Of a stretch of 64,000 nt of DNA, positions 7,098 through 27,018 are shown one piece after another; within the stretch, counting starts at the first letter, position 1, and every line of letters begins with the position of its first letter. This stretch comes from an uncultured Actinomycetes bacterium (GTDB taxonomy: Bacteria; Actinomycetota; Coriobacteriia; Anaerosomatales; Anaerosomataceae). Below the pieces are notes generated by a model. It worked only from the letters and a program-made list of their open reading frames with translations, did not search any database and was not told the DNA's origin. The stretch lies in assembly GCA_963700295.1 (NCBI GenBank), contig CAVOWY010000005.1, positions 17,405 to 81,404 of the forward strand. Reading direction: 5' to 3'. The translations under genes were made by a program, and so were the position numbers.

Positions 7098-8261
7098 CTA
7101 AGGCAGCGCGGCGACCGGGTGGCAGTTCATGCACAGGCCGTCGGTGTAGCCCGTGGTCGAAGCCTCCACGAGGAGCCGGTAACCGGTGGTCTCGTGGGGG
7201 AAGTTCTGGAATCGCGGATTGTCCGTTGCTACGGTGCCGTCGGCCTTCGTCACGATCGCTGGGCTCGGACTGGCCTGGGTGCCGTCCGTAGACAGCGAGC
7301 CTACGTCACGTGTGTCCTCGTGGCACTGCTGGCAGATCGGGTAGTGCCCCGCCTGCGCCCCCGTGCGCGGGTAGGGCATCAGGTAGGCCCGGTTGTACTG
7401 GTTGGCCAACTTGGTGTCGATCCCGGCGGGCCCCAGAACCGTGCTCGCTGTCGGATACGGGCCGGTGCCGACGATGCCGAGCTCCCGGTAGTTGTAGGGC
7501 ACATATGCCGGGTCGCCCGAGGCTACAAGGGAGTCAACGGGATGGTTGTGCGTGCTCAGTCCGGACGGACGGCCCGCATGGCAGGCCGCACACCAGTCTG
7601 AGCCGTACTCCTGCACGGGCGTAGTCGCGCCGCCGGGCGAGCGCTTCAGCAGACGGTTCTGGACCTGCACAGGCACGATGCCGTTGTGCACCATGTTCAC
7701 GAAGCGGGCTGCGCGCTGACGCTCGCCGAGGAAGGGCGTCACACAGTCGGACCCATGCGGCGAGTGGCAATCCGAGCAGGTCAGGGTGCCGTTGATTCCC
7801 GAGAATGCCATCGTCGCACTCCCGCCGTTCGAAGCGCTCCCGCCGGGAACCACGTTCGTGGTGTCGACGCTGTGATCGGCACCGACGGTCATTCCCCGGC
7901 CTGCTATCGCGCCGTACACGCCCTCACCGATCGTGGCGGTGCCGTCGTGGCAGGTGAAGCACGTTGCCGTGATCGTGGCCGCCGGCAGGAGCTTGGCGTT
8001 GGCCACAGGCGCGTCATGGATGGTGTGGCACTCCTCGCACTTGCTGGTGGTTGTGAGGTATCCGCCGTGCGGTCCGAACTTGGCCCCGTCAGTGGTAATC
8101 GACCCCATCCATGGGTCGTGGCAGGTCCCGCAGTATGCTGCGCTCGACGGAGGCTTGGGCAGGGGGAGGGTCTCGTCGTAGGCGAACGCACTTGTACAGC
8201 CGACCGCGAAGGTCAGGCACAACGCCGATACGAACACACCTCTTCTATTCCATCGCCGCAT
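7098..8261 (-). CDS. Secreted multiheme c-type cytochrome with 7 CxxCH motifs
   Basis: Signal peptide with a possible lipobox (LTFAVGC). Motifs CGTCH, CEECH, CFTCH, CSDCH, CAACH, CQQCH, CMNCH. Confidence 0.85.
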   Translation of the reverse strand: MRRWNRRGVFVSALCLTFAVGCTSAFAYDETLPLPKPPSSAAYCGTCHDPWMGSITTDGAKFGPHGGYLTTTSKCEECHTIHDAPVANAKLLPAATITATCFTCHDGTATIGEGVYGAIAGRGMTVGADHSVDTTNVVPGGSASNGGSATMAFSGINGTLTCSDCHSPHGSDCVTPFLGERQRAARFVNMVHNGIVPVQVQNRLLKRSPGGATTPVQEYGSDWCAACHAGRPSGLSTHNHPVDSLVASGDPAYVPYNYRELGIVGTGPYPTASTVLGPAGIDTKLANQYNRAYLMPYPRTGAQAGHYPICQQCHEDTRDVGSLSTDGTQASPSPAIVTKADGTVATDNPRFQNFPHETTGYRLLVEASTTGYTDGLCMNCHPVAALP

Positions 8262-9255: not shown

Positions 9256-9621
9256 CTAGGTGCCGAGGATCTCCCCGACCCGCTGACACAAGTCTTTCGG
9301 CGTGAATGGCTTGCAGATGTACTCGCAGGCCCCCCCGGCCAGCCCCTCTTCGACCTCGGTGCGCTGGCTCTTTGCGGAGAGCATGATCACCGGTATGTGT
9401 TCCGTTGCCGGATCGGCCTTCAGTTTATTGAGAACCTCGTACCCTGTCATCACCGGCATCATCACGTCGAGCAAGATCAGGTCCGGGATCTCGGCGTGCG
9501 CCATATCGTATGCTTCGCCGCCGTCCGTGGCCTGCAGGACTTCATACCCCCTGTTCGCGAGGGTGAACGACACCAGCTTTCTGATGTGCGGTTCGTCATC
9601 TGCGATGAGGATCCGGGTCAC
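9256..9621 (-). CDS. Single-domain response regulator
   Basis: ILIADDEPHIR, LILLDVMMPVMTG, YICKPF. Start overlaps the stop of the upstream hybrid kinase. Confidence 0.8.
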   Translation of the reverse strand: MTRILIADDEPHIRKLVSFTLANRGYEVLQATDGGEAYDMAHAEIPDLILLDVMMPVMTGYEVLNKLKADPATEHIPVIMLSAKSQRTEVEEGLAGGACEYICKPFTPKDLCQRVGEILGT

Positions 9622-11801
9622 CGTGCCTCATCCTCCGTCATGACCGACTCCACACGCGTGACGAATGCCTCGACATCGAATGGTTTGCTCACGCGCTCCG
9701 TCGCCAGTGCGAGCACGTCAGACCGTTCGCGATCGATCGGGTACGCGGACATGATGACCACGGGAATGTCCATGGTCTCCTCGCTTGTCTTGAGTTCCTC
9801 GAGGACCGCGTAGCCGTCCATGACCGGCATCCGCAGATCGAGCAGGATGGCGTCCGGCTTGGCGCGCTTGACGGCGGCCATCGCCTCGCGTCCGTCGTAG
9901 GCGCCCATCACCGTGTAACCGCGCTGCTTGAGTGTGTGACAGAGCAGGTCGACGATCTGCTTGTCATCGTCCACCACCAGGACCACGGGTGCAGCGATCG
10001 AACCCACGAGGCCGTCGATCACGCCGATCAGCCGGTCCTTGTCGATCGGCTTCTCGAGATAGCCGGCCGCGCCGCACCGTTCGCTCTTGCCCTCATCGCA
10101 GATGATCGACAGCACCACCACAGGGATGTCCCGAGTGGCGGCATCTCCCTTGAGCTTCTTGAGCAGCTGGAACCCGGCGCCCTCGTCGAGCATCACGTCG
10201 AGCGTGATCACCCGCGGCTCGAGCTCTACCGCATACTCCCACGCTTCGCCGGCCGTGAACGCCTTGACCACCTCGTAGCCGCGGCGCGACAGATAGGTGG
10301 CGATGAGATTCGCCACGTCTTCGGAGTTGTCGACCACGAGTACCCGACCGCCGGGGGAGCCGAGCGGGCCTTCGAGCGCAGGGGTCCGCACATGCTTGTC
10401 CGAAGCGAGCGGCAACTCGAACCAGAACGTGGAGCCCTCTCCCTCGGCGCTCTTCACACCCACGCGTCCGCCGAGGAGCTCGATGATGCTCTTGCAGATG
10501 GACAGACCCAGGCCGGTGCCGCCGATCTCGCGCGTGAGCGAGGAGTCGACGCGGTAGAACTTGGTGAAGAGCTTGCCCTGGTCCTCCGCTGCAATGCCGA
10601 TGCCCTGGTCGGTGATGCTCACTCGCACCATCTTGTCCTCCACGGAGGCACGTACGTGCACGTCGCCGCCTTCGGGTGAGTACTTGATGGCGTTGCTGAT
10701 GAAGTTGATGAGCACCTGGCCCACGCGATCGGGGTCTCCCGCAGCGAGCGGGAGGTCCTCCGGGACGTCGGCGTGGATCGTGCGTCCTAGCTGGTCGAGC
10801 ACGGCCCTGAACGTGTTGACGGCACCGGCTACACGCTCGGCCACATCGAGGGGCTGCACCTTGAGGACGATGCGGCCGCTCTCGATGCGGGAGATGTCCA
10901 GCATGTCGTTGATGAGGTCCACGAGCCGGTCGGAGTTCTCCTTGACGATGCCGAGGAACTCCTGCTGGATCTCGTTCACCTCGCCGGCCTCGCCGTCGAG
11001 GATGAGATCGATGTAGCCCTTGATCGATGTCAGCGGCGTGCGCAACTCGTGGCTCACGGTGGACACGAACTCGTTCTTCATCTGCGTCGCCTCGCGCTCG
11101 GCGGTGACGTCGCGGATGTTGGTTATGGCTCCAAGGTAGCTGCCATCGTCATCGAGCACCGGGTCCACCCGCACGTCCACGATGCGGTGCTCCGGCTCCT
11201 CCATGCGGACCTCGCGGAGCTGCGTGCCGGTCTCGCGCACCGTGCCCTCGGGATCCGCGGCCAGACGGAATACCTTCCATGTGTCCGTGACGAGACCCAC
11301 GAGCGCCTCCGCGCCGATGCCCAGGATGCGTTCCGCAGCCGGGTTCACGAAGGTGATGCGGTCCTCGGCGTCGAAGACCACGATCCCGTCGCTCGTGCTC
11401 GTGAGGATGGCTTCCGAACGCCGTCGCACGGCGGTGATCTCGGTGTTGTCCCTGATGGTGACGACCGCGCCCCACGCGATGCCGTCGACGTAGGGGGTCA
11501 CCGTGAAGGTGTAGTCGTTCCCGTTGAGCTCGCACTTGGAGACGACTGCGGCCTGCTGGTCGAGCGCCTCACGGAGCGCGGCATTGAGCCCACAGACGCC
11601 CAGCCCGTCGATCGGGGTGCCGACACACTCGTTCCGTACGACGCCGAGCATGGCCGAAGCGGCCTCGTTGATCATGCGGACCGTGCGATCGGGCGACACG
11701 GCGATCATGCCTTCGCTCGTGCCGGCCAACAGCGCCCTGATGTGCGAGTAGCTGCGCCGTTCGTTGCTGTCGGGCACCGAACACCACCTCCGTTTGGGCA
11801 T
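9618..11801 (-). CDS. Hybrid sensor histidine kinase: PAS domains, HisKA, HATPase_c and two C-terminal receiver domains
   Basis: HELRTPLTSIKGY (H-box), GGTGLGLSICKSI (G2), then two REC domains (VLVVDNSED.. and VLVVDDDKQ..). Confidence 0.85.
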   Translation of the reverse strand: MPKRRWCSVPDSNERRSYSHIRALLAGTSEGMIAVSPDRTVRMINEAASAMLGVVRNECVGTPIDGLGVCGLNAALREALDQQAAVVSKCELNGNDYTFTVTPYVDGIAWGAVVTIRDNTEITAVRRRSEAILTSTSDGIVVFDAEDRITFVNPAAERILGIGAEALVGLVTDTWKVFRLAADPEGTVRETGTQLREVRMEEPEHRIVDVRVDPVLDDDGSYLGAITNIRDVTAEREATQMKNEFVSTVSHELRTPLTSIKGYIDLILDGEAGEVNEIQQEFLGIVKENSDRLVDLINDMLDISRIESGRIVLKVQPLDVAERVAGAVNTFRAVLDQLGRTIHADVPEDLPLAAGDPDRVGQVLINFISNAIKYSPEGGDVHVRASVEDKMVRVSITDQGIGIAAEDQGKLFTKFYRVDSSLTREIGGTGLGLSICKSIIELLGGRVGVKSAEGEGSTFWFELPLASDKHVRTPALEGPLGSPGGRVLVVDNSEDVANLIATYLSRRGYEVVKAFTAGEAWEYAVELEPRVITLDVMLDEGAGFQLLKKLKGDAATRDIPVVVLSIICDEGKSERCGAAGYLEKPIDKDRLIGVIDGLVGSIAAPVVLVVDDDKQIVDLLCHTLKQRGYTVMGAYDGREAMAAVKRAKPDAILLDLRMPVMDGYAVLEELKTSEETMDIPVVIMSAYPIDRERSDVLALATERVSKPFDVEAFVTRVESVMTEDEAR

Positions 11802-11997: not shown

Positions 11998-12108
11998 GCG
12001 TGGCGCTCGCTAATGGTACCCGACTCAGCACCGCGGCTCCACCTCGGCGTGCGTGCCTGCACGGGCGGGTATGAACCCGACAAGCGCGACACGAGGAGGC
12101 GCCGGGCA

Positions 12109-13110
12109 GTGGACCGACGCGAGTTCTGCCGCATCGCACTGGGCTGCACGGTCGTGGGCTGCGTCGGCGGCCTCGCGGGGTGCGCGCGCCTGCTCGAGTG
12201 GTCGGCGCAGGACACCGGCGAGGGCCGCAGCGCCGCAATGGCCGAGCGCCCCGACGTCGCAACCGAGACCGTGGAGGCCACCGCAGCACCCGAGCCCGTG
12301 CCGCCTCCGCCCGATCTTGCGGTCTTCCGGGGCGAGGACCCGGCCGCCAACACGCGAGCGGCCATCCTCGCCCTCGGTGGCATGGAGCGGTTCGTGAAGC
12401 CCGGCGCCCGCGTGGCGATCAAGCCCAACATCGTGACGGGGCGCGAGCCGCAGTACGCCACCAGCACGAATCCGGAGGCGCTCGCCGAGGTCGTGCGGAT
12501 GGCGCTCGAGGCGGGTGCGGCCGATGTGATCGTCTTCGACCGTCCCACGGGCGACCCGTATACCTGCTACCGGGTGAGCGGCATCCAGGCCGCGGTCGAG
12601 GCGGCGGGTGGCTCGATGAAGGTGCTGACCGACCGCAACTTCGAACGCATCGACATCCCGGGCGCACGCGCGCTTGCGTCGTGGCCGCTCGTGACAGACG
12701 TGTTCGAGGTCGACACCTTCATCAACATGCCGATCGCAAAGCACCACGGGATGGCCATCCTCACCATGGCGATGAAGAACCTCATGGGCATCATGGGCGG
12801 CGAGCGCGGCGAGATCCACCAGGAGTTCCAGCACAAGATCGTGGACCTCGCCACGATCGTGCAGCCGCACCTCGTGATTCTCGACGCGTATCGCATCATG
12901 GTGCGCAACGGCCCCACCGGCGGCTCGCTCGACGATGTCGAGACGCCCAAGACAGTCGTCGCCGGCACCAACATGCCGTCGGTGGACGCGTACGGGACCA
13001 CGCTGTTCGGCATGCAGCCCACCGACCTCGACTACCTGCGTAACGCCGCCGAGCGAGGCCTCGGCGTGATCGACCTGGCGGCGCTCGTCATCCACGAGGG
13101 GACGGCGTAG
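12109..13110 (+). CDS. DUF362-domain protein with a Tat signal peptide
   Basis: RBS GAGGAGG 9 nt upstream of GTG 12109. N-terminus MDRREFCRIALGCTVVGCVGGLAGCA is a twin-arginine signal. The rest matches DUF362-like sequence (IKPNIV..., AKHHGMAILTMAMKNLMG). The supplied ORF start at 12013 is probably too far upstream. Confidence 0.65.
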   Translation: MDRREFCRIALGCTVVGCVGGLAGCARLLEWSAQDTGEGRSAAMAERPDVATETVEATAAPEPVPPPPDLAVFRGEDPAANTRAAILALGGMERFVKPGARVAIKPNIVTGREPQYATSTNPEALAEVVRMALEAGAADVIVFDRPTGDPYTCYRVSGIQAAVEAAGGSMKVLTDRNFERIDIPGARALASWPLVTDVFEVDTFINMPIAKHHGMAILTMAMKNLMGIMGGERGEIHQEFQHKIVDLATIVQPHLVILDAYRIMVRNGPTGGSLDDVETPKTVVAGTNMPSVDAYGTTLFGMQPTDLDYLRNAAERGLGVIDLAALVIHEGTA

Positions 13111-14625
13111 ATGTCCGAGTCGTCCCGTCACGGCATCCACCGCGTTCGGCGGTACCTCCAGCTTGGCTTCCTGCTGCTGTTCGTCATGCTGCTCGCCTTC
13201 ACCGTGTGGCCGCTCGGCGACGTCTATCTCGGGGCGTTCCTCGTCGGTGACCCGCTCGTGGCGCTCAACTCGGCGGTCAACGGCGTGCTGCGGCCGGAGA
13301 TGTGGCTCGCTCTCGTGATGCTTACGGTTCCGCTGGTGCTCGGCCGTGCGTTCTGCGGCTACGTGTGCCCGATGGGCGCGATCATCGAATGGGCCTCGCC
13401 GAAGGAGCGGCGCCACGGCCTATCGGATGCCGGACGGGAGAAGTGGCGCCGGGTGCCCGTGTTCGTGCTGCTCGTCTCAGCCGGCATGCTGCTGTTCGCG
13501 AGCGGCGCCTATCTGGTGTTCGATCCGCTTGCCACGATCACCCGCACCGCAACCGCACTGCTCTTCCCGTTCATCGACCGCATGGTGCGGCTCGCGGGCG
13601 ACATCCTGTACCTGGTGCCGGCCTTCCGCGGGAGCGTGGATACGGCCACTACCGCACTCGCCGGTCGGATCATCTACGCCGCGCCGCGGGTGTACGGTCT
13701 GTCGATGGCCGTGCTCGGCATGCTGCTCGCGATGCTTGGCGTGAACCTCGTGGAACGGCGCTTCTGGTGCCGCTACTTGTGTCCGCTCGGCGCTCTGCTT
13801 GGACTCGTGGGTCGGTTCGGGATCCGCAACCGCGTGGTGGATGCGGACGCCTGCATCTCGTGCGGGGCGTGCGACCGCGTCTGTCCGCTCGACGCGGTAC
13901 GGGACGGCTACCATGCCACGGACACGTCCCGCTGCCAGCTGTGCATGGAGTGCGCGGAAGCCTGCCCGCCCGATGCGATATCGATCGGCATGCGGCCGAA
14001 GAAGTCGCTCTACCGGCCGTCACGGCGTGCGTTCGTGGGCGGCGCGGCGGCGGGGCTTCTCGCCGGCTTCTTCACCTTCACCGGGCTCTCGCGGCGCACG
14101 CCCGACCGCCACCTCGTGCGTCCGCCCGGTACGGGAGCCGAAGGCCGCACCCTCGCGCTCTGCACCCGGTGCGGCCAGTGCATGAAGGTGTGCCCAACCA
14201 ACGTCTTGCAGCCGTCGTTCTCCAAAGCGGGCCTCGAAGGCTTCTTCACGCCGGAGATGGACTACCGGGTGGGCAACTGCGACTGGGCGTGCGCCGAGTG
14301 CGGCAAGGTCTGTCCGACGGGCGCCATCGAGCCGCTCGAGCTGCCTGAGAAGCGCGAGACCATCATCGGCCGCGCCTACATCGACACCACTCGCTGCATC
14401 CCGTGGACCGACTACCGCAACTGCCTGGTGTGCCAGGAGCTGTGCCCAATACCGGACAAGGCCATCGTCTTCACCGAAGACGAGGTGACCACGCCCGAGG
14501 GCGAGCCTCTCGTGGTGAAGCGTCCGCATGTGGTCGTCGAGCGCTGCATCGGCTGTGGCGTCTGCGAGTTCCACTGCCCCGTGCCGAGGGAGTCGGCGAT
14601 ACGCGTACGTGGCAATACGGCGTGA
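13111..14625 (+). CDS. NapH/MauN-like membrane-bound polyferredoxin (4Fe-4S)
   Basis: TM helices with RAFCGYVCP and CRYLCPLGAL motifs, plus several CxxCxxCxxxCP ferredoxin clusters. ATG overlaps the upstream stop. Confidence 0.8.
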   Translation: MSESSRHGIHRVRRYLQLGFLLLFVMLLAFTVWPLGDVYLGAFLVGDPLVALNSAVNGVLRPEMWLALVMLTVPLVLGRAFCGYVCPMGAIIEWASPKERRHGLSDAGREKWRRVPVFVLLVSAGMLLFASGAYLVFDPLATITRTATALLFPFIDRMVRLAGDILYLVPAFRGSVDTATTALAGRIIYAAPRVYGLSMAVLGMLLAMLGVNLVERRFWCRYLCPLGALLGLVGRFGIRNRVVDADACISCGACDRVCPLDAVRDGYHATDTSRCQLCMECAEACPPDAISIGMRPKKSLYRPSRRAFVGGAAAGLLAGFFTFTGLSRRTPDRHLVRPPGTGAEGRTLALCTRCGQCMKVCPTNVLQPSFSKAGLEGFFTPEMDYRVGNCDWACAECGKVCPTGAIEPLELPEKRETIIGRAYIDTTRCIPWTDYRNCLVCQELCPIPDKAIVFTEDEVTTPEGEPLVVKRPHVVVERCIGCGVCEFHCPVPRESAIRVRGNTA

Positions 14626-17844: not shown

Positions 17845-19738
17845 CTATGGCACCTTGCCGACCTCGAGTTCGACCTGGTCGCCGCGCTTGGCAGATGCGC
17901 CGGCGATCGGGAACTGGTTGATGACGAAGCCGTCCTCGGGCGCATCCACGTAGACCACCTTGGGCACGAGCCCCGCGGCGGTGATGATCGAGCGCGCCTC
18001 GGCCTCGGGCTTGTCACGCACCTCGGGCACGATGATCACTTCGGGACCCTTGGAGACCGCGATCGTGACGGTGCTGCCGGCCTCCAGCACGACGTTGGGG
18101 CTCGGGGTTCTGCGATCATCACGGTGCCTTTGGCGACGGTGTCGCTGAACTCCTCGACCGCCGACACCACGAGTCCCACGCGCCTCGAGGGTGGACTTGG
18201 CCTGAGCCTGCGCCTGACCCACGACGTTGGGGACCTTCACTTGCTCGATGCCGGCCGACACGAACAGGATCACGCGCGTGCCCTTGGGCACCGGCGTGCC
18301 CGCAGCGGGCTCGGTGCGGATCACGAGACCCTTCGCGATGGCGGCGCTGTTCTCGTCGGTGGTCTTGTCGTACTCGAGATCGCCGGTGGAGCGGAGCGCC
18401 TCGATGGCAGTCGCTTCAGGCATGTTGGTGAGGTCGGGCACGGTCACCTGCGCGATGCCCATGCTCACGACGATGTTGACGGCCGCGCCCTCCTCGACCT
18501 CGGCCCCGGCCTCGGGGTCCTGCGAGATGATCAGGCCGAGTTCGACCGTGTCGCTGTTCTCGGTGGTGATCTCGCCGAGCGCGAGCCCCCCGGCTTCGAG
18601 TGTCGTCTTCGCCTGCTCCTCGGTGAGGCCGGAGAGCGCGGGCACGGTCACGCCGCCGCCGCCGCCGAAGCGCGCATAGGCGACGCCCAGACCGACGAGC
18701 AGCAGCACCGCGGCCGGACCGACCCACAGCCATGGGTTCGTGCGCCGTTGCGGTACGGGGCGCATCTGGGGGGCCACGGTCGGCCGCGTACTTGCGGACT
18801 GCTCGACCGGCGGCAGTACGCTCGTGTGGTCGGCACCGGCTGCTCCGCCGTACGCGCCGCCCACCGCCGCCTGGCCGGTTGCGACGCGCTTGAGGTCGTC
18901 GCGCATCTCGGCGGCCGAGGAGTAGCGGTCGGCGGGGTTCTTCCGCATCGACGCGCAGGATGACCGCCTCGAGTGCCGGAGGGATCGATCCGCGGAGTCT
19001 GCCGCGGCGGGATCGGCTCCTCGTTGACCTGCGCGAGCGCGGTTGCCACGGGTGTCTCGTGGTCGAACGGCAGCTTGCCGGTCACGAGCTCGTAGAGCGT
19101 CACGCCGAGCGAATAGAGGTCCGAGGCAGGGGTGAGGGGCTTGCCCTGCGCCTGCTCGGGGCTGATGTACTGTGCGGTGCCGAGCACTGAGTTGGTCTGC
19201 GTCATGGTGGTGTTGCCGGCGCGCGCGATGCCGAAGTCCATGACCTTGATCTGGCCGTCCGGGGTGAGCACGATGTTGTGCGGCTTGATGTCGCGGTGGA
19301 TCGACGTCGTAGCCGTGCGCCACCGAAAGCGCCGCGCACACCTGCTGCGCGTACTCGGCAGCCTTCTGCGGGTCGAGCGGGCCGCGTCCAACGAGCGACT
19401 TGAGGTCGGTGCCGTTCACGTACTCCATGACGATGTAGTACGTCTCGTCCTCACGACCCCAGTCGTACATGTTGACGATGTTGGGATGCGAGAGGTTGGC
19501 CGCGGCCTGCGCCTCCTGGCGGAACCGCGCGACGAAGTTGGGCTCCGAGCGCGTAGCGCGGGTGCAGCACCTTGACGGCGACGGTCCGGCCGAGGACGTC
19601 GTCCACGGCCTTGTAGACGTCGGCCATGCCGCCCGAGCCGATCTTCTCGGTGACGCGGTACCTGCGTCCGAATACCAGATCTTCCACGTCCGCCCTGCCC
19701 TCTCTCACCTGCGATGACACGCTCGCGCGCTGACCCAT
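17845..19738 (-). pseudogene. pknB: PknB-type Ser/Thr kinase with PASTA repeats, broken by at least 3-4 frameshifts
   Basis: Kinase subdomains lie in three different minus-strand frames (YRVTEKIGSGGMADVY.. / IHRDIKPHNIVL..DFGIA.. / MEYVNGTDL..). PASTA repeats are intact to the C-terminus and one stretch is off-frame. Confidence 0.75.
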
Positions 19739-19787: not shown

Positions 19788-22529
19788 CTACTGGGTGACC
19801 TGCAGCGCAGTCTCGAGCACCGGCTTGGCCGCCGGCGCGGCCACCTGCCCGCCCACGCCCGCGTTCTCGAGCACGATCGCGATCGCCACGCGCGGCTCCT
19901 CCGCCGGTGCGAACGCGATGAACCAGGCGTGCGTCTCGACCGACTTGCCCGCCTCGGCGGTGCCGGTTTTGCCCGCGACCGTCACGCCGCTGATCTTCGC
20001 CCGCGTTCCCGAGCCGCTCTCCACCACGCTCACCATGATGTCGGTCACCCGCGCAGCGGTCGCGGCATCAATCGCGGTCCGCCACGTGCGCGGCGTGGTC
20101 GAGCTGAGGACCTCGCCCGCCCGATCCGTGACGGCGCTGATGACGTATGGCCGCATCACGTCTCCATCGTTGGCGATGCCCGATGCCACGAGCGCCATCT
20201 GGAGCGCGGTCACCTGCGGGCCGGGCGGGCTGTCATGCTCGCCCACCGGCTGACCCACACCTGCCCATGCCGTCTCCCACGTGGTCATCTCGGTGGGGTC
20301 GGGCATCAGCGAGGTGACACTCGGCAGGTCGAACGGCACCGGGCCGTTGATGCCGAACGCTTCGCTGCCCTCTACCAGCCGCTCGGCGCCCACGTCCACG
20401 GCGAGCTGTGCGAAGACCGTGTTGACCGAACTGGCGGTGGCCTTCCTGAGATCGATCGCGCCGTACGAGCTGCCGCCGTAGTTGGTGACGGGTGCTCCGC
20501 CGATCTCGATGCTCGCCGGCCCCGTGTAGGTCGTGCCTTCGGTCGCCACCCCGCTCTCAAGCGCGGCGGCGAGCGTCACGACCTTGTAGGTCGAGCCGGG
20601 CGGATAGAGGCTCATCGCCGCACGGTTCAGGAGCGCCGCGTTGGTGCTGTCCGAGGAGAGCGCCGCCCACTGGTCGTCCACGGCGCCCGGCGCGTACGCG
20701 GGGCTCGAGGCCATCGCGAGCACCGCGCCGGTGCGCGGGTCGAGCACCACGATCGCTCCGGTGCGGCCCGCGAGCGCGGCCTCGGCCGCAGCCTGGATGC
20801 GCGAGTCTATCGTGAGCCGGACGTCGTTTCCGGGCACCGGGGTGCCGGCGGCTGCTTCGATCATGTCGGCGAACGACGCGAAGTTGCTCTTGCCCGCAAG
20901 CGCCTCGTTGCCGGCGGCCTCCACGCCCGCGCGCCCGTAGCGGGTGGAGTAGTAGCCGAGCACGTGTGCCGCGAGCGATCCCTGCGGGTACTGCCGAACG
21001 TAGACGCTGCCGCTCTTCACCGACTCGGCGAGCACCACGCCGTCGGCCGAGATGATGGCGCCGCGCTCCTGGCGCATCTCGGCGGCCAGCCCCCGCGTGT
21101 TGGCGGGGTTCGCGGTGAGCGAGTCGGCCGCGATGGCCTGGACGTACGTGAGGTTGGCGGTGAGCGCGACCATCAGCGCGACCATGAGCCACGCCACCCC
21201 CGTGAGCCGCCTCGTGAGCGCGATGCGCCCGAGCAGCCCGGTGCCGCCGCTCACCACGATCTCGGTCTCGCTGCCGGTGCCGGTGTCGCCGGCGCGCATG
21301 AGCAGGCCGAGCAGGATGAAGTTCGAGAGTATCGAGCTGCCGCCGTAACTCACGAACGGGAGCGTGATGCCGGTGAGCGGGATGAGCCGCGTGACGCCGC
21401 CGATGATCACGAACGCCTGCAGGCCGAAGGTGGCGACAAGCCCGGTCGCGGCGAGGGCCGCGACGTCCGAGCGTGCCCGCGACGCGGTTGCGAGGCCGCG
21501 CAGGCAGAAGGCGAGGTAGGCGATGATGAGCGCCGCTCCGGCGAGCAGGCCGAGCTCCTCGGCGATGGCGGTGAAGATGAAGTCGGTCTCGACGAAGGGG
21601 ATGCGTCCGGGGAGCCCGCGCCCGATGCCCACGCCGAGCACGCGTCCGGCGGCGAGCGCGAACAGCGACTGCGCGAGCTGATACCCGCGCCCCGCCACGT
21701 CGGCGAACGGGTCGAGCCATATGGAGATGCGTTGCTGCACGTGGTCGAACGCGAGGTACGCGCCCGTGGCGCCCACAGCGAACAGCCCCATACCCACCGC
21801 GATGTAACCCGGACGGCCGGTCGCCGCATAGAGCATCACGAGGAACACACCGAAGAACAGCAGGCTCGAGCCGAGGTCCTTCTCGGCCACGAGCACGATC
21901 AGGCTCACCGCCCACATGACGAGCAGCGGTCCGAGATGCTTCGCAGGCGGCAGCCACATGCCGAGGGTGCGTTTCGTGCTCACCGAGAGCACCTCGCGCT
22001 TCTCGGCGAGGTACGCGGCGAGGAAGAGCACGATGAGTACCTTGGCGATCTCGGCGGGCTGGAAGGAGAACCCGGCGAAGCGCAGCCACAGCTTGGCACC
22101 GTTGACCTCCACGCCCACCAGTGCCGGCAGGACCAGCAGCACGATGCCGCCGAGCGCGATGGTGTACTTGAAGCGCGCGAGGCGCTCCAGCGAGGGCACG
22201 AGCACGAGCACTGCCGCGAGCGCGACCACGCCGGCAAGCACCCACAGCACCTGACTCGCAGCGAGCTCGGCGTCCAGGCGCGTTATGGTGGCGAGCCCGA
22301 CGCCGGTGAGCAGGAAGGCGATCGGGAGAAGGGACGGGTCGGCGCCGCGCGCGAGGTAGCGCGCGGCTGCGTGGGCGCCCAGGAAGCAGACGAGGAGTCC
22401 GACGGGGACGGTGATGTCGCTCCAGGTGAGCGTGGAGCCCTGTGCGCCGTGGACGAGCACAAAGTAGAGCACCACCACGGGAGCGGCGGAGAGCAGCAGG
22501 AGGAGCTCGGTGTCACGTCGGCTGCGCAT
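19788..22529 (-). CDS. SEDS protein (RodA/FtsW) and class B PBP (PbpA-like transpeptidase) as one 913-aa in-frame ORF
   Basis: N-terminal ~470 aa is a polytopic FtsW/RodA-like protein. From the TM helix RRLTGVAWLMVALMV onward the sequence is PBP dimerisation plus transpeptidase (SxxK in PGSTYKV, KTGTAE). No stop codon separates the two parts. Confidence 0.8.
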   Translation of the reverse strand: MRSRRDTELLLLLSAAPVVVLYFVLVHGAQGSTLTWSDITVPVGLLVCFLGAHAAARYLARGADPSLLPIAFLLTGVGLATITRLDAELAASQVLWVLAGVVALAAVLVLVPSLERLARFKYTIALGGIVLLVLPALVGVEVNGAKLWLRFAGFSFQPAEIAKVLIVLFLAAYLAEKREVLSVSTKRTLGMWLPPAKHLGPLLVMWAVSLIVLVAEKDLGSSLLFFGVFLVMLYAATGRPGYIAVGMGLFAVGATGAYLAFDHVQQRISIWLDPFADVAGRGYQLAQSLFALAAGRVLGVGIGRGLPGRIPFVETDFIFTAIAEELGLLAGAALIIAYLAFCLRGLATASRARSDVAALAATGLVATFGLQAFVIIGGVTRLIPLTGITLPFVSYGGSSILSNFILLGLLMRAGDTGTGSETEIVVSGGTGLLGRIALTRRLTGVAWLMVALMVALTANLTYVQAIAADSLTANPANTRGLAAEMRQERGAIISADGVVLAESVKSGSVYVRQYPQGSLAAHVLGYYSTRYGRAGVEAAGNEALAGKSNFASFADMIEAAAGTPVPGNDVRLTIDSRIQAAAEAALAGRTGAIVVLDPRTGAVLAMASSPAYAPGAVDDQWAALSSDSTNAALLNRAAMSLYPPGSTYKVVTLAAALESGVATEGTTYTGPASIEIGGAPVTNYGGSSYGAIDLRKATASSVNTVFAQLAVDVGAERLVEGSEAFGINGPVPFDLPSVTSLMPDPTEMTTWETAWAGVGQPVGEHDSPPGPQVTALQMALVASGIANDGDVMRPYVISAVTDRAGEVLSSTTPRTWRTAIDAATAARVTDIMVSVVESGSGTRAKISGVTVAGKTGTAEAGKSVETHAWFIAFAPAEEPRVAIAIVLENAGVGGQVAAPAAKPVLETALQVTQ

Positions 22530-22537
22530 GGGCGGCC

Positions 22538-23623
22538 TCAGGGTGCGGGGGTGGGCGTGGACTCCGCCGCGACCCGCGCCCGGTACCCGTCAAGCAGCGC
22601 GCGGGCCGCATCGAGCCCGTCGACCCGGATCCCCTCGGCAAGGCGGTTGGCGGTGATGGCGTCGAGGGAGGAGACCGGAAGCGTGGTCTCTTCCGAGAGC
22701 CAGCTCAGCTTGATGCCTGCGAGGCTTCCCGGCACACCTTCGTAGACGGCCACCACGCCGTTCTCCGAGATGAGGTACGCCTGCGAGCGCGCGTAGGAGT
22801 CGGCGGCCCATGCGGCGGTGGCCACGACCGCGACCACTGCGAGCAGCCACAGTGCGCGCAGACCCCAGCGCGGTCCGCCCGGCTGTCGCGTCGGCTGGCC
22901 GTGCGTCGGTCGGCCGATGTCGACGACCACCGCGGTGACGTTGTCGTGCCCGCCCGCGGCGAGCGCACGGTCGACAAGCGCGTCCACGGCGTCTTTCGGC
23001 GTGGGCTCCGAAGCGAGCACCCGGCCGATGTCGTCATCGGTGACCATGCTGGTCAGCCCGTCGGTGGCGAGCAGCAGGCGGTCTCCTTCGGCCGCCTGCA
23101 CGTCGTACGAGTCGGCGAGCATGTTGGGATCGCTTCCGAGCGCGCGCGTGATCACGCTGCGGTTCGGGTGATGACGCGACTCCTCGGCGGTGAGCTGTCC
23201 CGAACGCACGAGGTCGGCCACCATCGAGTGGTCCTGCGTGATCTGCTCGAGCGTGCCGAGGTGCAGCAGGTAGGCGCGGCTATCGCCCACGTGTGCGAGT
23301 GCGATGCGCGTGCCTTCGATCATCGCGGCGGTGAGCGTCGTGCCCATGCCGCTGCGCCCGCGGCCGATCTCGGCCGCCTCGATCACGGCGGCGTTTGCGC
23401 GACGGACCGCGCGTCCGAGTGCCTTGGAGTCCGCGGTCCGGGGGGCGTTCTCGAGCAGCTCGTCGATCGCGATCGAACTTGCGATCTCGCCCGCCTGATG
23501 CCCGCCGAGGCCGTCGGCCACCGCGAAGAGCGGGGGCGCCACCAGGAAGGCGTCCTCGTTGTCGGTGCGGACGAGCCCGACGTGGCTGTCGCCCGCAAAT
23601 CCCTCAGCATGCCGCGCGCTCAC
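22538..23623 (-). CDS. pstP: PP2C-family Ser/Thr phosphatase (PstP-like) with a C-terminal TM and extracellular segment
   Basis: FAVADGLGGH, GDSRAYL, LLATDGL, GGHDNVT motifs. Confidence 0.85.
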   Translation of the reverse strand: MSARHAEGFAGDSHVGLVRTDNEDAFLVAPPLFAVADGLGGHQAGEIASSIAIDELLENAPRTADSKALGRAVRRANAAVIEAAEIGRGRSGMGTTLTAAMIEGTRIALAHVGDSRAYLLHLGTLEQITQDHSMVADLVRSGQLTAEESRHHPNRSVITRALGSDPNMLADSYDVQAAEGDRLLLATDGLTSMVTDDDIGRVLASEPTPKDAVDALVDRALAAGGHDNVTAVVVDIGRPTHGQPTRQPGGPRWGLRALWLLAVVAVVATAAWAADSYARSQAYLISENGVVAVYEGVPGSLAGIKLSWLSEETTLPVSSLDAITANRLAEGIRVDGLDAARALLDGYRARVAAESTPTPAP

Positions 23624-24036
23624 AGACGCACCACCTCAAGACGGTTCTGGCCGAGTTCGATCACGTCGCCTGCCGCGAGCGGCAGCGGGCGCGTGGCGGG
23701 CTGGCCGTTGACGAGCGTGCCATTGGTCGAGCCGAGGTCCTCAAGCACGTGACCGTCATCAGTCGGCACGATCTTGGCGTGGGTCGAGGAGACGAAGTCG
23801 TCCGCGATCACGAGGTCCGCGTCGGGCGAGCGGCCGATGATGACGGGGCCTGCGAGGGGGATCGAGATGCCGGTGATCTCCTTCGGCCCGCGCACCACCC
23901 GTACTGCGAGGCCCCTGCGGACGTTCTTGGCCTTGCCACCCACCATTCCGATGCCGGTCTTCACCGCGGCGAAGAGGAACAGGTACAGCAGCGCTATCAG
24001 CACGATGCGTCCGAAGAGGAGTGCGACGTCGACCAT
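23620..24036 (-). CDS. fhaB: FHA-domain membrane protein (FhaB/FipA-like)
   Basis: N-terminal TM helix, C-terminal FHA domain (GRSPDADLVI..SSTHAKI..GSTNGTLVNG). Confidence 0.8.
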   Translation of the reverse strand: MVDVALLFGRIVLIALLYLFLFAAVKTGIGMVGGKAKNVRRGLAVRVVRGPKEITGISIPLAGPVIIGRSPDADLVIADDFVSSTHAKIVPTDDGHVLEDLGSTNGTLVNGQPATRPLPLAAGDVIELGQNRLEVVRL

Positions 24037-24040
24037 GGCC

Positions 24041-24754
24041 TCAGCCCTTCGGCGCGTGATACACGAGGCGGGTCAGGCCGATCTCGACCACGTCGCCGTC
24101 AGCAAGGCGCACGCGTTCGATCGGGCGGCCGTTCACGCGCGTCCCATTCGTTGAGCCGAGGTCGGTGATCGCCCAACCGTCGTCGAGTCGGATGAATGCG
24201 GCGTGGCGACGCGAGACGTTCGCGTCGTGGAGCTGGACCTGACATTCGGCGAGCCTGCCCACCGTCACCTCATCGCCGCCGAGCGCCACGTCGTGGTCGA
24301 TGTCGCCGACCGTGACGGTCGCCAGGTCGCTCGCGCCTGAGGGTGCGTCGGGGAGGCGCACAGCCGGGCCCTCGTCGTGCTCGTCGACCACGGCAAGTGC
24401 CGCGCTCACGCGGAATCTTCCGAGCTTGAGGTCGTCATGGACGGCGAAGCTGACCAGCGGGCGTATGGGCAACAGGTAACCCTGCTCCCGCGCGTGATCG
24501 ACGAGGTAGGTGGCAAGCTCGCCCGCAAGCACCGGCTTGAACGTGCCGAGTGCCTCGCTGTCCTCCGGCGAGAGGGCGACGGTGAACGAGGTCGGAGCGT
24601 AGACGGTTCCCACGCCGAGCACGCGGCCGTCGTCTGCGGCGCGGGTGAGCGCACGCGCGATCTCGACGGGCTGCACGGGCGAGCGGAACGCGCCCGCGAA
24701 CAGGCCCTCGATACCGGATGCGATGCGATCTTCAAAGTCGGAGAGGATGCCCAT
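24041..24754 (-). CDS. fhaA: FhaA-like protein (DUF3662 N-domain plus C-terminal FHA)
   Basis: MGILSDFEDRIASGIEGLF N-terminus, FHA motifs (VSRRHAAF..GSTNGTRVNG). Confidence 0.75.
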   Translation of the reverse strand: MGILSDFEDRIASGIEGLFAGAFRSPVQPVEIARALTRAADDGRVLGVGTVYAPTSFTVALSPEDSEALGTFKPVLAGELATYLVDHAREQGYLLPIRPLVSFAVHDDLKLGRFRVSAALAVVDEHDEGPAVRLPDAPSGASDLATVTVGDIDHDVALGGDEVTVGRLAECQVQLHDANVSRRHAAFIRLDDGWAITDLGSTNGTRVNGRPIERVRLADGDVVEIGLTRLVYHAPKG

Positions 24755-24872
24755 GTGCCTGCGCAAACGTCGGCGACGTGCCAGCGGACACTCAATGATA
24801 GCAGGGGGCGCACCGTGGCCGCTCAGGCGTCAGCGTGCCGTTGCATGTCCAACGAGCGCGAGAGGTCTGCCG

Positions 24873-26588
24873 CTACTCCTCCTCGGGCCGCGTGGGCGCG
24901 CCGAGTGCGACGACCACGAGCGCAAGCCCGACGCCGAGCGTGAGGTCGAGCGCGAAGGCCTCGGGGCCGAACGAGTGGCTGAGCCAGCTCCACGCAACGT
25001 ACCCGCCGAGGAGCGCGGCGCCGCCTGCGAGCACACCGGCGAACGCGCCCGCGCGCGTGGCGCGTCGGCAGCCCAGCGAGGTGAGCGCGCCGGCGAGCAT
25101 CCACGCGAGGACCATGATGCCCGTTCCGGGGGTGAGCAGGCGCGAGACAGGGTCGGTCGCCACCGGCGCCAGTTGCAGCGGGTCGCTCAGGAAGTGCCAG
25201 CACACCGAGAGCAGCGGCGGCCACGCGCCGGACATGACCGCCGCGGCCATCACGGCGAGCGCCGTGACGCCGGAGGTCAGCGCGGCCACGATCGGCGGAT
25301 ACGCGAAGCCGAGCAGCAACGGCGCGGCCGGCGCGGCATGGATCACCCCGAGCACCGGTCCGATGACTGGCGCGAACGCGTCGGTTCGGCCCGCGCGCCC
25401 GCGCGCTGCCCAGAAGGCGGCGAGGACGAGGCCGATCACGAGTCCCGGCACCCAGCCGAGCGCGATCGCCGCGCCCACCGCGAAGAGTCCGAACCCGAGC
25501 GCGGCACCGAGCCCTGGCGCGAGCGCCGCTGCAAGCGCGACCACCACGGCTCCGGCGATACGGGCGGGCCGGTCGAGCCCGAAGCCCTCGATGGCGGAGT
25601 ACGCGAGCCATGCCGACGCGATCGCGGCTATCGCGCGCCTGGCCGTGTCCGCGTGTGGCGCAAGCCGGTCCCAGAGCCCGAGGGGCTCATAATCGGCCTC
25701 CTCGTCTGCCTCATCGGTCCCGAGCAGTCCGTCGACTACCTCCGCCAGCGACTCGCGTCCGGCCTCGGGGTTGCCGAGGTGGGGCAGCAGCGCCCCGGCG
25801 AATGCGGTCGCACTCTCGTAGCGATCGAACGGGTCGGCGGCGAGCCCGGCCACGAGCACGTCGTCGACCGCCCGGGGGAGGTCCGGCTCGAACTCGGAGG
25901 GTGCGGGGAGATCGGCCACGTCGATCTTGAACAGCGATCCCTCGGCGGTCTCCGCGTCGAACGGGTTGGCATTCGTGAGCACCTCGAAGGCGAGTGTCGC
26001 AAGCGCCCACCCGTCGGTGCGTTCGTCGAGCGCCTGCCGACGCAGCTGCTCTGGTGGCATGTAGCCGATGGTGCCTGCTGTGCCGGATGCCCGGCCGGTG
26101 ATGTCGGTGAGGGCCGAGACGCCAAAGTCCGCCACCTTCACGTGACCGTCGCGGGTGACGATCACGTTGGCGGGCTTGAGATCGAGGTGTAGGACGCCGT
26201 TGGCGTGTGCGAACGCGAGCGCGGCCGACACGCCGGCGACGATGGCTGCCGCCTCGTCGAGCGTGAACGGTTCGTCGGTGGTGTCGAGGATCTCGGCAAG
26301 CGAGGCGCCGTCGAGGTGCTCCATGACGATGAACGCCTCGTCGTCGTCCGTGTCCCATTCGTGCACCGTGACGATGTTCGGGTGGTTGAGCATCGCGGCG
26401 GTGCGTGCCTCGGCAAGCCCGGTGCGCGCGAGCGCGCGTCCGGCGGCGTCGAGAGGACGTGGCAACCGCTTGATCGCCACGCGACGCGCCATCTTGGTGT
26501 CGAATGCGAGGACGACCGAGCCGTGCCCTCCCGCGCCGAGATCGGCGAGGGGCCGATACCGATCGAGGATGAGCGGCGCCTCCACCAC
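24873..26588 (-). CDS. Ser/Thr protein kinase with a long polytopic membrane C-terminal region
   Basis: Kinase motifs (GAGGHGSVV, VAIKRL, HLDLKPANVIV, DFG, GTIGYMPPE) then ~250 aa of Ala/Gly/Leu-rich TM helices. GTG start 1 nt after the FKBP stop; the supplied ORF over-extends upstream. Confidence 0.7.
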   Translation of the reverse strand: MVEAPLILDRYRPLADLGAGGHGSVVLAFDTKMARRVAIKRLPRPLDAAGRALARTGLAEARTAAMLNHPNIVTVHEWDTDDDEAFIVMEHLDGASLAEILDTTDEPFTLDEAAAIVAGVSAALAFAHANGVLHLDLKPANVIVTRDGHVKVADFGVSALTDITGRASGTAGTIGYMPPEQLRRQALDERTDGWALATLAFEVLTNANPFDAETAEGSLFKIDVADLPAPSEFEPDLPRAVDDVLVAGLAADPFDRYESATAFAGALLPHLGNPEAGRESLAEVVDGLLGTDEADEEADYEPLGLWDRLAPHADTARRAIAAIASAWLAYSAIEGFGLDRPARIAGAVVVALAAALAPGLGAALGFGLFAVGAAIALGWVPGLVIGLVLAAFWAARGRAGRTDAFAPVIGPVLGVIHAAPAAPLLLGFAYPPIVAALTSGVTALAVMAAAVMSGAWPPLLSVCWHFLSDPLQLAPVATDPVSRLLTPGTGIMVLAWMLAGALTSLGCRRATRAGAFAGVLAGGAALLGGYVAWSWLSHSFGPEAFALDLTLGVGLALVVVALGAPTRPEEE

Positions 26589-26589
26589 G

Positions 26590-27018
26590 CTATCGGCCGA
26601 CGATCTCCACGAGGCTGAGCTCGAACGTGAGGTCCTGGCCGGAGAGCGGATGGTTGAAGTCGAGGACGACATGGTCGTCGAGGACCTCGGAGACGGTCGC
26701 CGCCATCTGCTGACCATCGGGACTCTGCACCCCGATGACCATGCCCACCTCGGGCTCCATGTCCTCGAAGACATCGATCGGCACGTTCTGGAACGCCTCC
26801 GGATGGCGCTCGCCGTAGGCCTCATCCGAAGGGATGGTGACCGTTGTCGATTCGCCCACGACAAGTCCTGCTACCGCGGCCTCGAAGCCGGGGATCACGG
26901 ACTCCTCGCCGAGCGTGAACGTGAGCGGGTCGCGCCCTGCGCTGCTGTCGAACTCCGATCCGTCGGACAGCGTGCCCCGGTAGTGCACGCGAACGGTCTC
27001 GCCGGTTTGTGGATTCAC
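26590..27018 (-). CDS. FKBP-type peptidyl-prolyl cis-trans isomerase
   Basis: VHYRGTLSDGSEFDSS..., GLVVGE. Confidence 0.85.
   Translation of the reverse strand: MNPQTGETVRVHYRGTLSDGSEFDSSAGRDPLTFTLGEESVIPGFEAAVAGLVVGESTTVTIPSDEAYGERHPEAFQNVPIDVFEDMEPEVGMVIGVQSPDGQQMAATVSEVLDDHVVLDFNHPLSGQDLTFELSLVEIVGR

Follow-up and report, generated by a model that had tools for sequence, protein, structure and literature searches.

The window analysed here is a stretch of 64,000 nucleotides (nt) from an uncultured Actinomycetes bacterium of the class Coriobacteriia (GenBank assembly GCA_963700295.1, contig CAVOWY010000005.1, positions 17,405 to 81,404). On its minus strand, at 19788..22529, lies an open reading frame (ORF) of 913 codons, starting with ATG at 22529 and ending with a stop codon at 19788-19790, in which a SEDS (RodA/FtsW) glycosyltransferase is followed by a PbpA-type penicillin-binding protein (PBP) of class B. 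The original prediction, which did not give the strand, had claimed that both parts are read in the same frame without a stop as a single product of 913 amino acids (aa), and the ORF, its translation and the Pfam search agreed with it: no internal stop was found among the 913 codons, and the SEDS, PBPA_dimer and transpeptidase domains stood in one uninterrupted ORF. The sequence GAGG was located 8 nt 5' of the fusion ATG, and the stop codon of the preceding gene, pstP, lies 8 nt ahead of the same ATG. The encoded protein was 100% identical to a public protein, P0001.

The SEDS profile PF01098 (FTSW_RODA_SPOVE) matched residues 87-413 with 242.2 bits (cut-off 26.4), reaching from position 35 to position 350 of its 356, and the SEDS core was assigned to aa 61-414 (21288..22349; all features of the fused gene are on the minus strand). 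Two extra N-terminal transmembrane (TM) helices (residues 4-29 and 36-59; aa 1-60, 22350..22529) were recognised from the AlphaFold2 (AF2) helices and hydropathy; the alignments to SEDS structures in the PDB begin only at aa 66-97. The SEDS core is followed by a cytoplasmic linker of aa 415-440, DTGTGSETEIVVSGGTGLLGRIALTR (21210..21287), composed of the former C-terminal tail of RodA and the former N-terminus of PbpA, and by the single TM anchor of the PbpA-type module, aa 441-466 (21132..21209), the 13th TM segment of the chain, assigned from the AF2 helix, hydropathy and alignment. The junction had been expected at about 21130-21200; this stretch turned out to be the TM anchor, and the true linker precedes it in the protein. 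The PbpA-type dimerisation domain, PF21922 (PBP_dimer_2; residues 489-570, 20820..21065), scored 73.4 bits against a cut-off of 27 and replaces the classical pedestal of class B PBPs, whose profile, PF03717, gave only 22.5 bits, under its cut-off of 24.4. The D,D-transpeptidase domain, PF00905 (residues 591-906, 19812..20759), was matched with 202.3 bits, far over the cut-off.

The catalytic residues of both enzymes were present. Alignment to the PDB structures of SEDS proteins placed E160 (22050-22052) and K163 (22041-22043), the pair of the FQPxExxK motif, opposite E108 and K111 of Thermus thermophilus RodA (6BAR, 6PL5 and 8TJ3 alignments), and D316 (21582-21584) opposite D255 of the same protein and D262 of Escherichia coli RodA, the catalytic Asp of the 'TDF' motif, which in these RodA proteins sits in the extracellular loop ahead of TM8. 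The SEDS half matched Pseudomonas aeruginosa FtsW (8BH1) with an E-value of 1e-37, E. coli RodA (8TJ3_B) with 4e-30 and T. thermophilus RodA (6PL5 and 6BAR) with about 1e-28. The transpeptidase carried the predicted SxxK and KTG motifs, read as S646-T-Y-K649 (20583-20594) and K854-T-G856 (19962-19970), and in addition the SxN motif S701-V-N703 (20421-20429). E160, K163, D316, SxxK, SxN and KTG were all invariant in 43 aligned homologues. The Pfam scan of the fused protein gave no match to the GT51 domain (PF00912), and the NCBIfam match to PBP_1a_fam was confined to the transpeptidase part and reached 117 against a cut-off of 508.75, so that the protein did not qualify as a class A PBP. No further SEDS or class B PBP genes were detected in the 64-kb window by tblastn.

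The fused gene recurs in many relatives. In a protein search of 5.8 billion clusters built at 90% identity, from which the 120 best clusters were listed, at least 120 independent clusters (66-100% identity) contained the same three Pfam domains, most of them in proteins of 910-913 aa. Apart from the identical protein and a 98% relative, identities ranged from 66 to 89%, and the clusters originated from NCBI, ENA, JGI and Logan assemblies. The 98% relative, annotated as 'FtsW/RodA/SpoVE family cell cycle protein [Coriobacteriia bacterium]', is encoded on a 509-kb contig of the genome L081 (GCA_030652115.1), the DNA of which is 95% identical to the window over 12.5 kb, and it too is an intact 913-aa ORF. 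The two genes differ by 118 substitutions, of which codon positions 1, 2 and 3 account for 12, 12 and 94, and there is no net indel between them.

The possibility that adjacent rodA and pbpA genes had been merged by an assembly or sequencing error, through a lost stop or a shifted frame, deserved attention given the ten single-nt insertions around the neighbouring pknB which, in comparison with the 95%-identical genome, make indel errors plausible. However, the same fused ORF was found in at least 120 clusters of separate projects, in L081 and, besides these, in the genomes of 16 Coriobacteriia, the linker was conserved as a protein sequence, and the codon pattern relative to L081 was that of a gene without a net indel. 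A stop or a shifted frame at the junction of near relatives had been set beforehand as the observation that would speak against the fusion; neither was found in their genomes, and the proposed survey of relatives revealed fused genes in 16 loci besides the clusters described above. We regard a lost-stop artefact as effectively excluded.

Both modules are under purifying selection. The ratio of nonsynonymous to synonymous substitution rates (dN/dS, Nei-Gojobori method, near relatives) was about 0.06-0.1 in the SEDS as well as in the PBP module, and for the linker it amounted to 0 in the comparison with L081 and 0.19 in the comparison with a second relative, L014. One of the two modules might be catalytically dead and serve only as a scaffold or regulator, but the known catalytic residues of both are invariant in the 43 sequences, the two halves experience similar purifying selection, and the transpeptidase of the Atopobium orthologue has been crystallised in complexes with beta-lactams, as stated in the titles of the entries. 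A dead module thus appears highly improbable.

The AF2 model, built from the 43-sequence alignment, had a mean predicted local distance difference test score (pLDDT) of 84.2. Its C-terminal half matched 4MNR, the transpeptidase of Eggerthella lenta, with a TM-score of 0.95 and a root-mean-square deviation of 1.5 A (Foldseek), the Atopobium parvulum beta-lactam complexes with TM-scores of 0.92-0.95, and Mycobacterium tuberculosis PbpA (3UN7 and 3UPN) with 0.87-0.89. The structure prediction proposed as a check was in line with the fusion. Judged from its catalytic motifs, PBP_dimer_2 domain, single TM anchor and PbpA-like predicted fold, the C-terminal half is a PbpA-type class B PBP.

The AF2 helices and hydropathy indicated 12 TM segments before the linker (10 of the core and two extra N-terminal ones, the latter kept in all 43 aligned relatives) and one after it. 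Basic residues were concentrated in the predicted cytoplasmic loops, the catalytic loops pointed outward, and the N-terminus as well as aa 415-440 were placed inside. The charge distribution and the helix count together therefore argue for a cytoplasmic linker, and the 13th TM segment would bring the PBP domains outside, the orientation that both activities require. The topology deduced for the fusion agrees with the one reportedly established for SEDS proteins and class B PBPs (by Sjodt, in 2018 and 2020).

The linker itself was predicted to be disordered, with pLDDT below 50 at residues 417-431, and is followed by a long helix, 430-466, with pLDDT of about 92. The hydrophobic stretch 442-468 marks the TM anchor and aligned with the N-terminal TM segment of unfused PbpA genes. 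In the 43-sequence alignment, G414, D415, L433, G434, R435 and R441 were invariant and the linker indels comprised just 1-2 residues. Across the Coriobacteriia loci both length and sequence of the linker varied, around the pattern R-A/C-G-D-x2-T/P-G ... L-G-R-x-x-L-x-x-R-L. T418 was considered as a universal phospho-site and found to be a weak candidate: it was at least 90% conserved in close relatives, but several Eggerthellaceae and other Coriobacteriia have P or V in its place.

A disordered linker of variable length and sequence that contains GTG codons (V425/V426) could also mean that the gene is fused and two proteins are nevertheless made, either by internal initiation near the linker or by cleavage of the disordered segment, so that the working unit would be the usual non-covalent RodA-PbpA complex. 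Direct reading of the sequence revealed no convincing Shine-Dalgarno motif upstream of the linker GTG codons. Moreover, the frame has been kept across the whole class at 46-100% identity, which would be needless if two proteins were made, and engineered SEDS-PBP fusions work as single chains (PMC10449877). The production of two separate proteins is accordingly improbable, and a single chain remains the preferred product. It is rather doubtful, though a shade less so, that a class-wide fusion of single origin uses its conserved linker as a regulatory element rather than as a passive tether; for example, a phospho-threonine in the linker could be set by PknB, removed by PstP and recognised by the FHA proteins of the operon. 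If this were true, Ser/Thr signalling would be coupled directly to a single-chain synthase, and the natural fusions would offer ready-made, stoichiometrically defined SEDS-class B PBP enzymes for structural and mechanistic work.

The genes around the fusion were also informative about its type. Upstream, likewise on the minus strand, lie fhaA (24041..24766, with FhaA_N and FHA domains), a gene for an fhaB-like FHA-domain protein (23620..24036), both assigned from Pfam and from the gene order in L081, and pstP (22538..23623), encoding a PP2C Ser/Thr phosphatase (Stp1_PP2C_phos, 244 bits against a cut-off of 230). The fusion is thus flanked by pstP immediately upstream and by the gene of a PASTA Ser/Thr kinase, pknB (17845..19738, minus strand), immediately downstream, and the order fhaA-fhaB-pstP-(rodA-pbpA)-pknB is identical in L081. 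A further Ser/Thr kinase gene is found upstream of fhaA (24873..26864 as listed, minus strand); its true start is probably located further in, since the homologue in L081 has 571 aa. The arrangement is that of the pstP operon conserved in actinobacteria, whose pstP, rodA and pbpA genes are cotranscribed (PMC6554272). The names RodA and PbpA were adopted on the grounds of this synteny and of the PBP_dimer_2 domain, the SEDS half being ambiguous by sequence alone.

This ambiguity bears on the question of whether the fused pair might be a divisome FtsW-FtsI or a sporulation-type SpoVE-SpoVD synthase instead of the RodA-PbpA elongation/maintenance pair. The SEDS half scored slightly higher for FtsW than for RodA, both in NCBIfam (241.8 bits for TIGR02614 against 208.7 for TIGR02210) and in the PDB, where P. 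aeruginosa FtsW was matched with 133 bits and E. coli RodA with 108, and a 2025 survey notes kinase and phosphatase neighbours also for spoVD/spoVE (PMC12516126). On the other hand, none of the equivalog cut-offs was reached, the PBP half carries the PbpA-specific PBP_dimer_2 domain, and its best match outside the Coriobacteriia was M. tuberculosis PbpA with an E-value of 1e-58, compared with 1e-27 for FtsI. The order fhaA-fhaB-pstP-X-pknB matches the rodA-pbpA operon of actinobacteria, and no dcw genes were found nearby in the window. In addition, the same survey reports that Senegalimassilia faecalis possesses separate canonical FtsW/FtsI and RodA/MrdA pairs besides its fusion (PMC12516126). 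There is hence little likelihood of a divisome or sporulation synthase, and the RodA-PbpA assignment is favoured.

The distribution of the fusion was analysed in a scan that took a single GTDB genome for each species and returned 80 related loci. Counting of stop-free segments over these loci proved misleading, as off-frame stretches of high-GC DNA are also stop-free, and it was replaced by tblastn with explicit counting of in-frame stops, since tblastn high-scoring segment pairs may cross stops. Many seemingly full-length matches were then revealed to be two genes parted by a stop or a change of frame. Sixteen loci crossed the junction in one frame without a stop (L001-L011, L014-L016, L035 and L044), and 15 of them bear the label Coriobacteriia, among them Eggerthellaceae, Parvibacter, Adlercreutzia and Raoultibacter; the remaining one, L002, comes from a metagenome-assembled genome (MAG) labelled just 'Actinomycetota' and groups with the Coriobacteriia loci. 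In L015 the frame is lost downstream of the junction, near aa 719, and the match in L044 starts at query aa 314. The window protein aligned with those of Parvibacter, Adlercreutzia and Eggerthellaceae over the full length in a single frame at 48-52% identity, and with that of Raoultibacter in part (query aa 314-911).

Among the Coriobacteriia loci retrieved, all those whose junction is intact cross it in one frame. Separate adjacent genes, parted by a stop or a frame change, were seen in the Gaiellales, Thermoleophilia, Solirubrobacterales, Acidimicrobiia, Nanopelagicales, Actinomadura, Chloroflexota and Clostridia loci. The statement of the original prediction that rodA and pbpA are separate genes in Actinobacteria consequently held for the Acidimicrobiia, Thermoleophilia, Gaiellales and Actinomadura loci and failed for the Coriobacteriia. 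In at least nine unfused relatives (L013, L020, L021, L022, L024, L025, L027, L028 and L031) the rodA stop abuts an in-frame pbpA start, as in 'EGA*MDKPI' and 'VA*MERQI', although the ranking of loci favours same-frame cases and biases the frequency of such abutment upward. With this arrangement one substitution could create the fusion, which most likely arose by loss of the rodA stop where it adjoined the in-frame pbpA start. In a query-anchored neighbour-joining tree (Kimura distances, midpoint root, biased sampling), a crude one, the clade uniting the window and Eggerthellaceae comprised 25 leaves, all fused, and no split locus inside. A single fusion event at or before the base of the Coriobacteriia is the most likely origin suggested by these sequences.

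Two loci required separate inspection. The one at L012:1530-4259, from an 'Oscillospiraceae' bin, is a Coriobacteriia-type fused gene of 46% identity with 10 in-frame stops, which may be a decayed copy, low-quality sequence or a contig placed in the wrong bin; it is counted as a degraded fused copy among the 25 leaves. An apparently independent fusion in an Acidimicrobiia MAG (L033:6001-8753), whose name suggests a long-read assembly, was rejected: its linker resembles out-of-frame sequence, the reading frame breaks off near aa 819, and the case is probably an indel artefact.

Fused proteins were also detected at greater distance. An exhaustive HMMER search covered 1.84 billion representatives at 50% identity; among the best 150 matches, which were the ones considered, 103 were at least 800 aa long and 96 had a single match spanning the junction. 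Ten distant proteins (30-45% identity) were sampled, and SEDS and transpeptidase domains were present in all ten and PBP_dimer_2 in eight. The distant fused representatives (P0122-P0270, 30-45% identity) formed all-fused clades of 39, 17 and 14 among split loci, outside the Coriobacteriia clade, which suggests that several independent fusions may have taken place beyond this class. One of the distant proteins, P0135 (MFN3652935.1, from an Armatimonadota MAG), has 1058 aa and carries an N-terminal FHA domain in front of the SEDS, PBP_dimer_2 and Transpeptidase domains; here the operon's FhaB-like phosphothreonine reader forms one chain with the synthase as well.

Altogether, the gene very probably is genuine, was inherited vertically and encodes a peptidoglycan synthase of the actinobacterial RodA-PbpA type, with the SEDS protein and the class B PBP covalently joined in a single chain. 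The covalent synthase, put forward in the original prediction, is supported by the domain architecture, the conserved catalytic residues, the topology, the operon context and the conservation in relatives. SEDS proteins and their class B PBP partners form a non-covalent complex in other bacteria. In the fusion, the N-terminal SEDS module with its 12 TM segments would use D316 and E160/K163 to assemble glycan strands from lipid II at the external surface of the membrane. The cytoplasmic C-terminal tail of this module would lead, by way of the flexible linker (about 26 aa), into the PbpA-type TM anchor, and the external PBP_dimer_2 and transpeptidase (S646) domains would cross-link the nascent strands. 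The PBP TM helix may pack against the SEDS core, as it reportedly does on TM8/TM9 of RodA in RodA-PBP2 (Sjodt, in 2020). Such an arrangement would fix a 1:1 stoichiometry and guarantee co-assembly. Owing to its operon location, the fusion is presumably under the same Ser/Thr phosphorylation system, with PknB and PstP as likely regulators.

Several observations weigh against this interpretation. The SEDS half stayed under the NCBIfam equivalog cut-offs for FtsW (241.8 against 337.5) as well as for RodA (208.7 against 336.7), and the PBP half stayed under that for MrdA (TIGR03423, 299.6 against 455). The predicted TM-score of the AF2 model was only 0.63. The ten single-nt insertions within 2 kb downstream cast suspicion on the local sequence quality, the fused ORF itself being clean. 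Finally, the literature searched, the coverage of which was incomplete, yielded no work on a natural fusion by biochemistry, proteomics or genetics.

The novelty implied by the original prediction was not upheld: the same architecture in the same class and gene context has been published (PMC12516126), natural SEDS-PBP fusions are mentioned by Nygaard in 2023 (PMC10449877), and crystal structures of the C-terminal half of orthologues date from 2013-14. The fused state is an already known, lineage-typical one in the Coriobacteriia, to which the window adds another orthologue. The 2025 Microlife survey describes a 931-aa protein of S. faecalis (Coriobacteriales) with transpeptidase, PBPA_dimer and FtsW/RodA/SpoVE domains, flanked by Ser/Thr kinase and phosphatase genes (PMC12516126). 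This protein shares the three domains, their order, the class, the kinase and phosphatase flanks and a similar length with the window fusion, and differs in belonging to another lineage within the class; the window represents an uncultured environmental group with 67% G+C and its protein is about 50% identical to the Eggerthellaceae-type ones. The S. faecalis fusion is known from this database survey without functional data, in which 117 InterPro proteins that combine SEDS and transpeptidase domains are counted and named 'bifunctional bPBPs', with Rhodococcus jostii RHA1 and others also noted (PMC12516126). NCBI routinely annotates the fused proteins under the 'FtsW/RodA/SpoVE family cell cycle protein' name.

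The transpeptidase domains of E. lenta and A. parvulum (4MNR, 4JBF, 4N1X, 4RA7, 4QJG and others; 2013-14) matched query residues 459-911 with E-values of 1e-108 to 1e-120 and 43-46% identity, 4MNR with 7e-120. The title of the latter entry, 'D,D-Transpeptidase Domain of Peptidoglycan Glycosyltransferase from Eggerthella lenta', indicates that the domain is part of a larger protein. These crystals contain the soluble C-terminal half only, the SEDS half, linker and TM anchor being absent, and the Atopobium entries are beta-lactam complexes. Sequence comparison indicates that the window fusion is orthologous to the fused proteins of cultured Coriobacteriia.

The M. tuberculosis RodA (Rv0017c) and PbpA (Rv0016c) follow the same operon logic (PMC6554272) and share the PbpA-type dimerisation domain; the PbpA structures 3LO7 and 3UN7 matched the PBP half of the fusion with an E-value of 1e-58, TM-scores of 0.87-0.89 and 35% identity. 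In contrast to the window, rodA and pbpA of M. tuberculosis are two genes for two polypeptides in the operon fhaA-fhaB-pstP-rodA-pbpA-pknA-pknB, whereas in the window pknA is missing between pbpA and pknB and the second kinase gene is found upstream of fhaA instead.

Another natural single-ORF fusion with the SEDS half at the N-terminus, the 947-aa SEDS-pedestal-transpeptidase protein of R. jostii RHA1, has been cited as an example (Nygaard 2023, PMC10449877). It differs from the window protein in its classical pedestal (PBP_dimer) and in adjoining mreB, on account of which it belongs to the RodA-PBP2 (MrdA) type; it is also described in the survey (PMC12516126) and is presumably of independent origin. 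The engineered fusions RodA-PBP2 of E. coli (cryo-EM structure 8TJ3), SpoVE-SpoVD of Bacillus subtilis and FtsW-PBP3 of E. coli have the same SEDS-linker-class B PBP order and are active single chains (PMC10449877), but they are not natural and contain a synthetic linker, TSGSGSGS, and a pedestal-type PBP. E. coli RodA and PBP2 matched the two halves of the window fusion with E-values of 4e-30 and 2.5e-33, respectively. Class A PBPs likewise unite a polymerase and a transpeptidase in one polypeptide; theirs is a soluble extracytoplasmic GT51 domain, whereas that of the fusion is a polytopic SEDS protein.

In most bacteria, pairs of SEDS proteins and class B PBPs act as the core cell-wall synthases, and they are major targets of antibiotics. 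A single-chain form occurring in nature would show that both enzymes work as an obligate 1:1 unit, and the natural fusion formed part of the rationale for the engineered cryo-EM fusions. The present analysis adds the presence of the fusion in all the intact-junction Coriobacteriia loci retrieved, as one clade in a rough tree, the purifying selection acting on both halves and on the linker, and the stop that often abuts the start in unfused relatives. The residual interest lies in the biochemistry of natural single-chain synthases of this kind and in a possible regulatory role of the conserved linker.

Downstream of the fusion, the window carries ten single-nt insertions relative to L081, at 19781, 19549, 19303, 18997, 18953, 18181, 18114, 18103, 17812 and 17782. 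All ten are insertions, with no deletion among them, none lies in a homopolymer, and the first is 7 nt past the fusion stop codon. Seven of them fall inside pknB, whose reading frame is split into five or more segments, whereas the L081 (611 aa) and L014 genes are intact; the pieces of the broken gene were 87-93% identical in protein to L014. The rest of the 12.5-kb alignment with L081 showed few isolated or compensating indels. The insertions may represent a very recent change or a local assembly or polishing artefact, probably the latter, rather than an old pseudogene, and they leave the fused ORF unaffected.

Elsewhere in the window, we noted an ORF for a multihaem cytochrome c with paired CXXCH motifs (7098-8261, minus strand), a PAS hybrid histidine kinase with two receiver domains (9618-11801, minus strand), and a DUF362 protein followed by a poly-ferredoxin (12013-14625, plus strand). 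This set of cytochrome c, hybrid kinase and poly-ferredoxin has a respiratory look, unusual for a Coriobacteriia MAG of 67% G+C.

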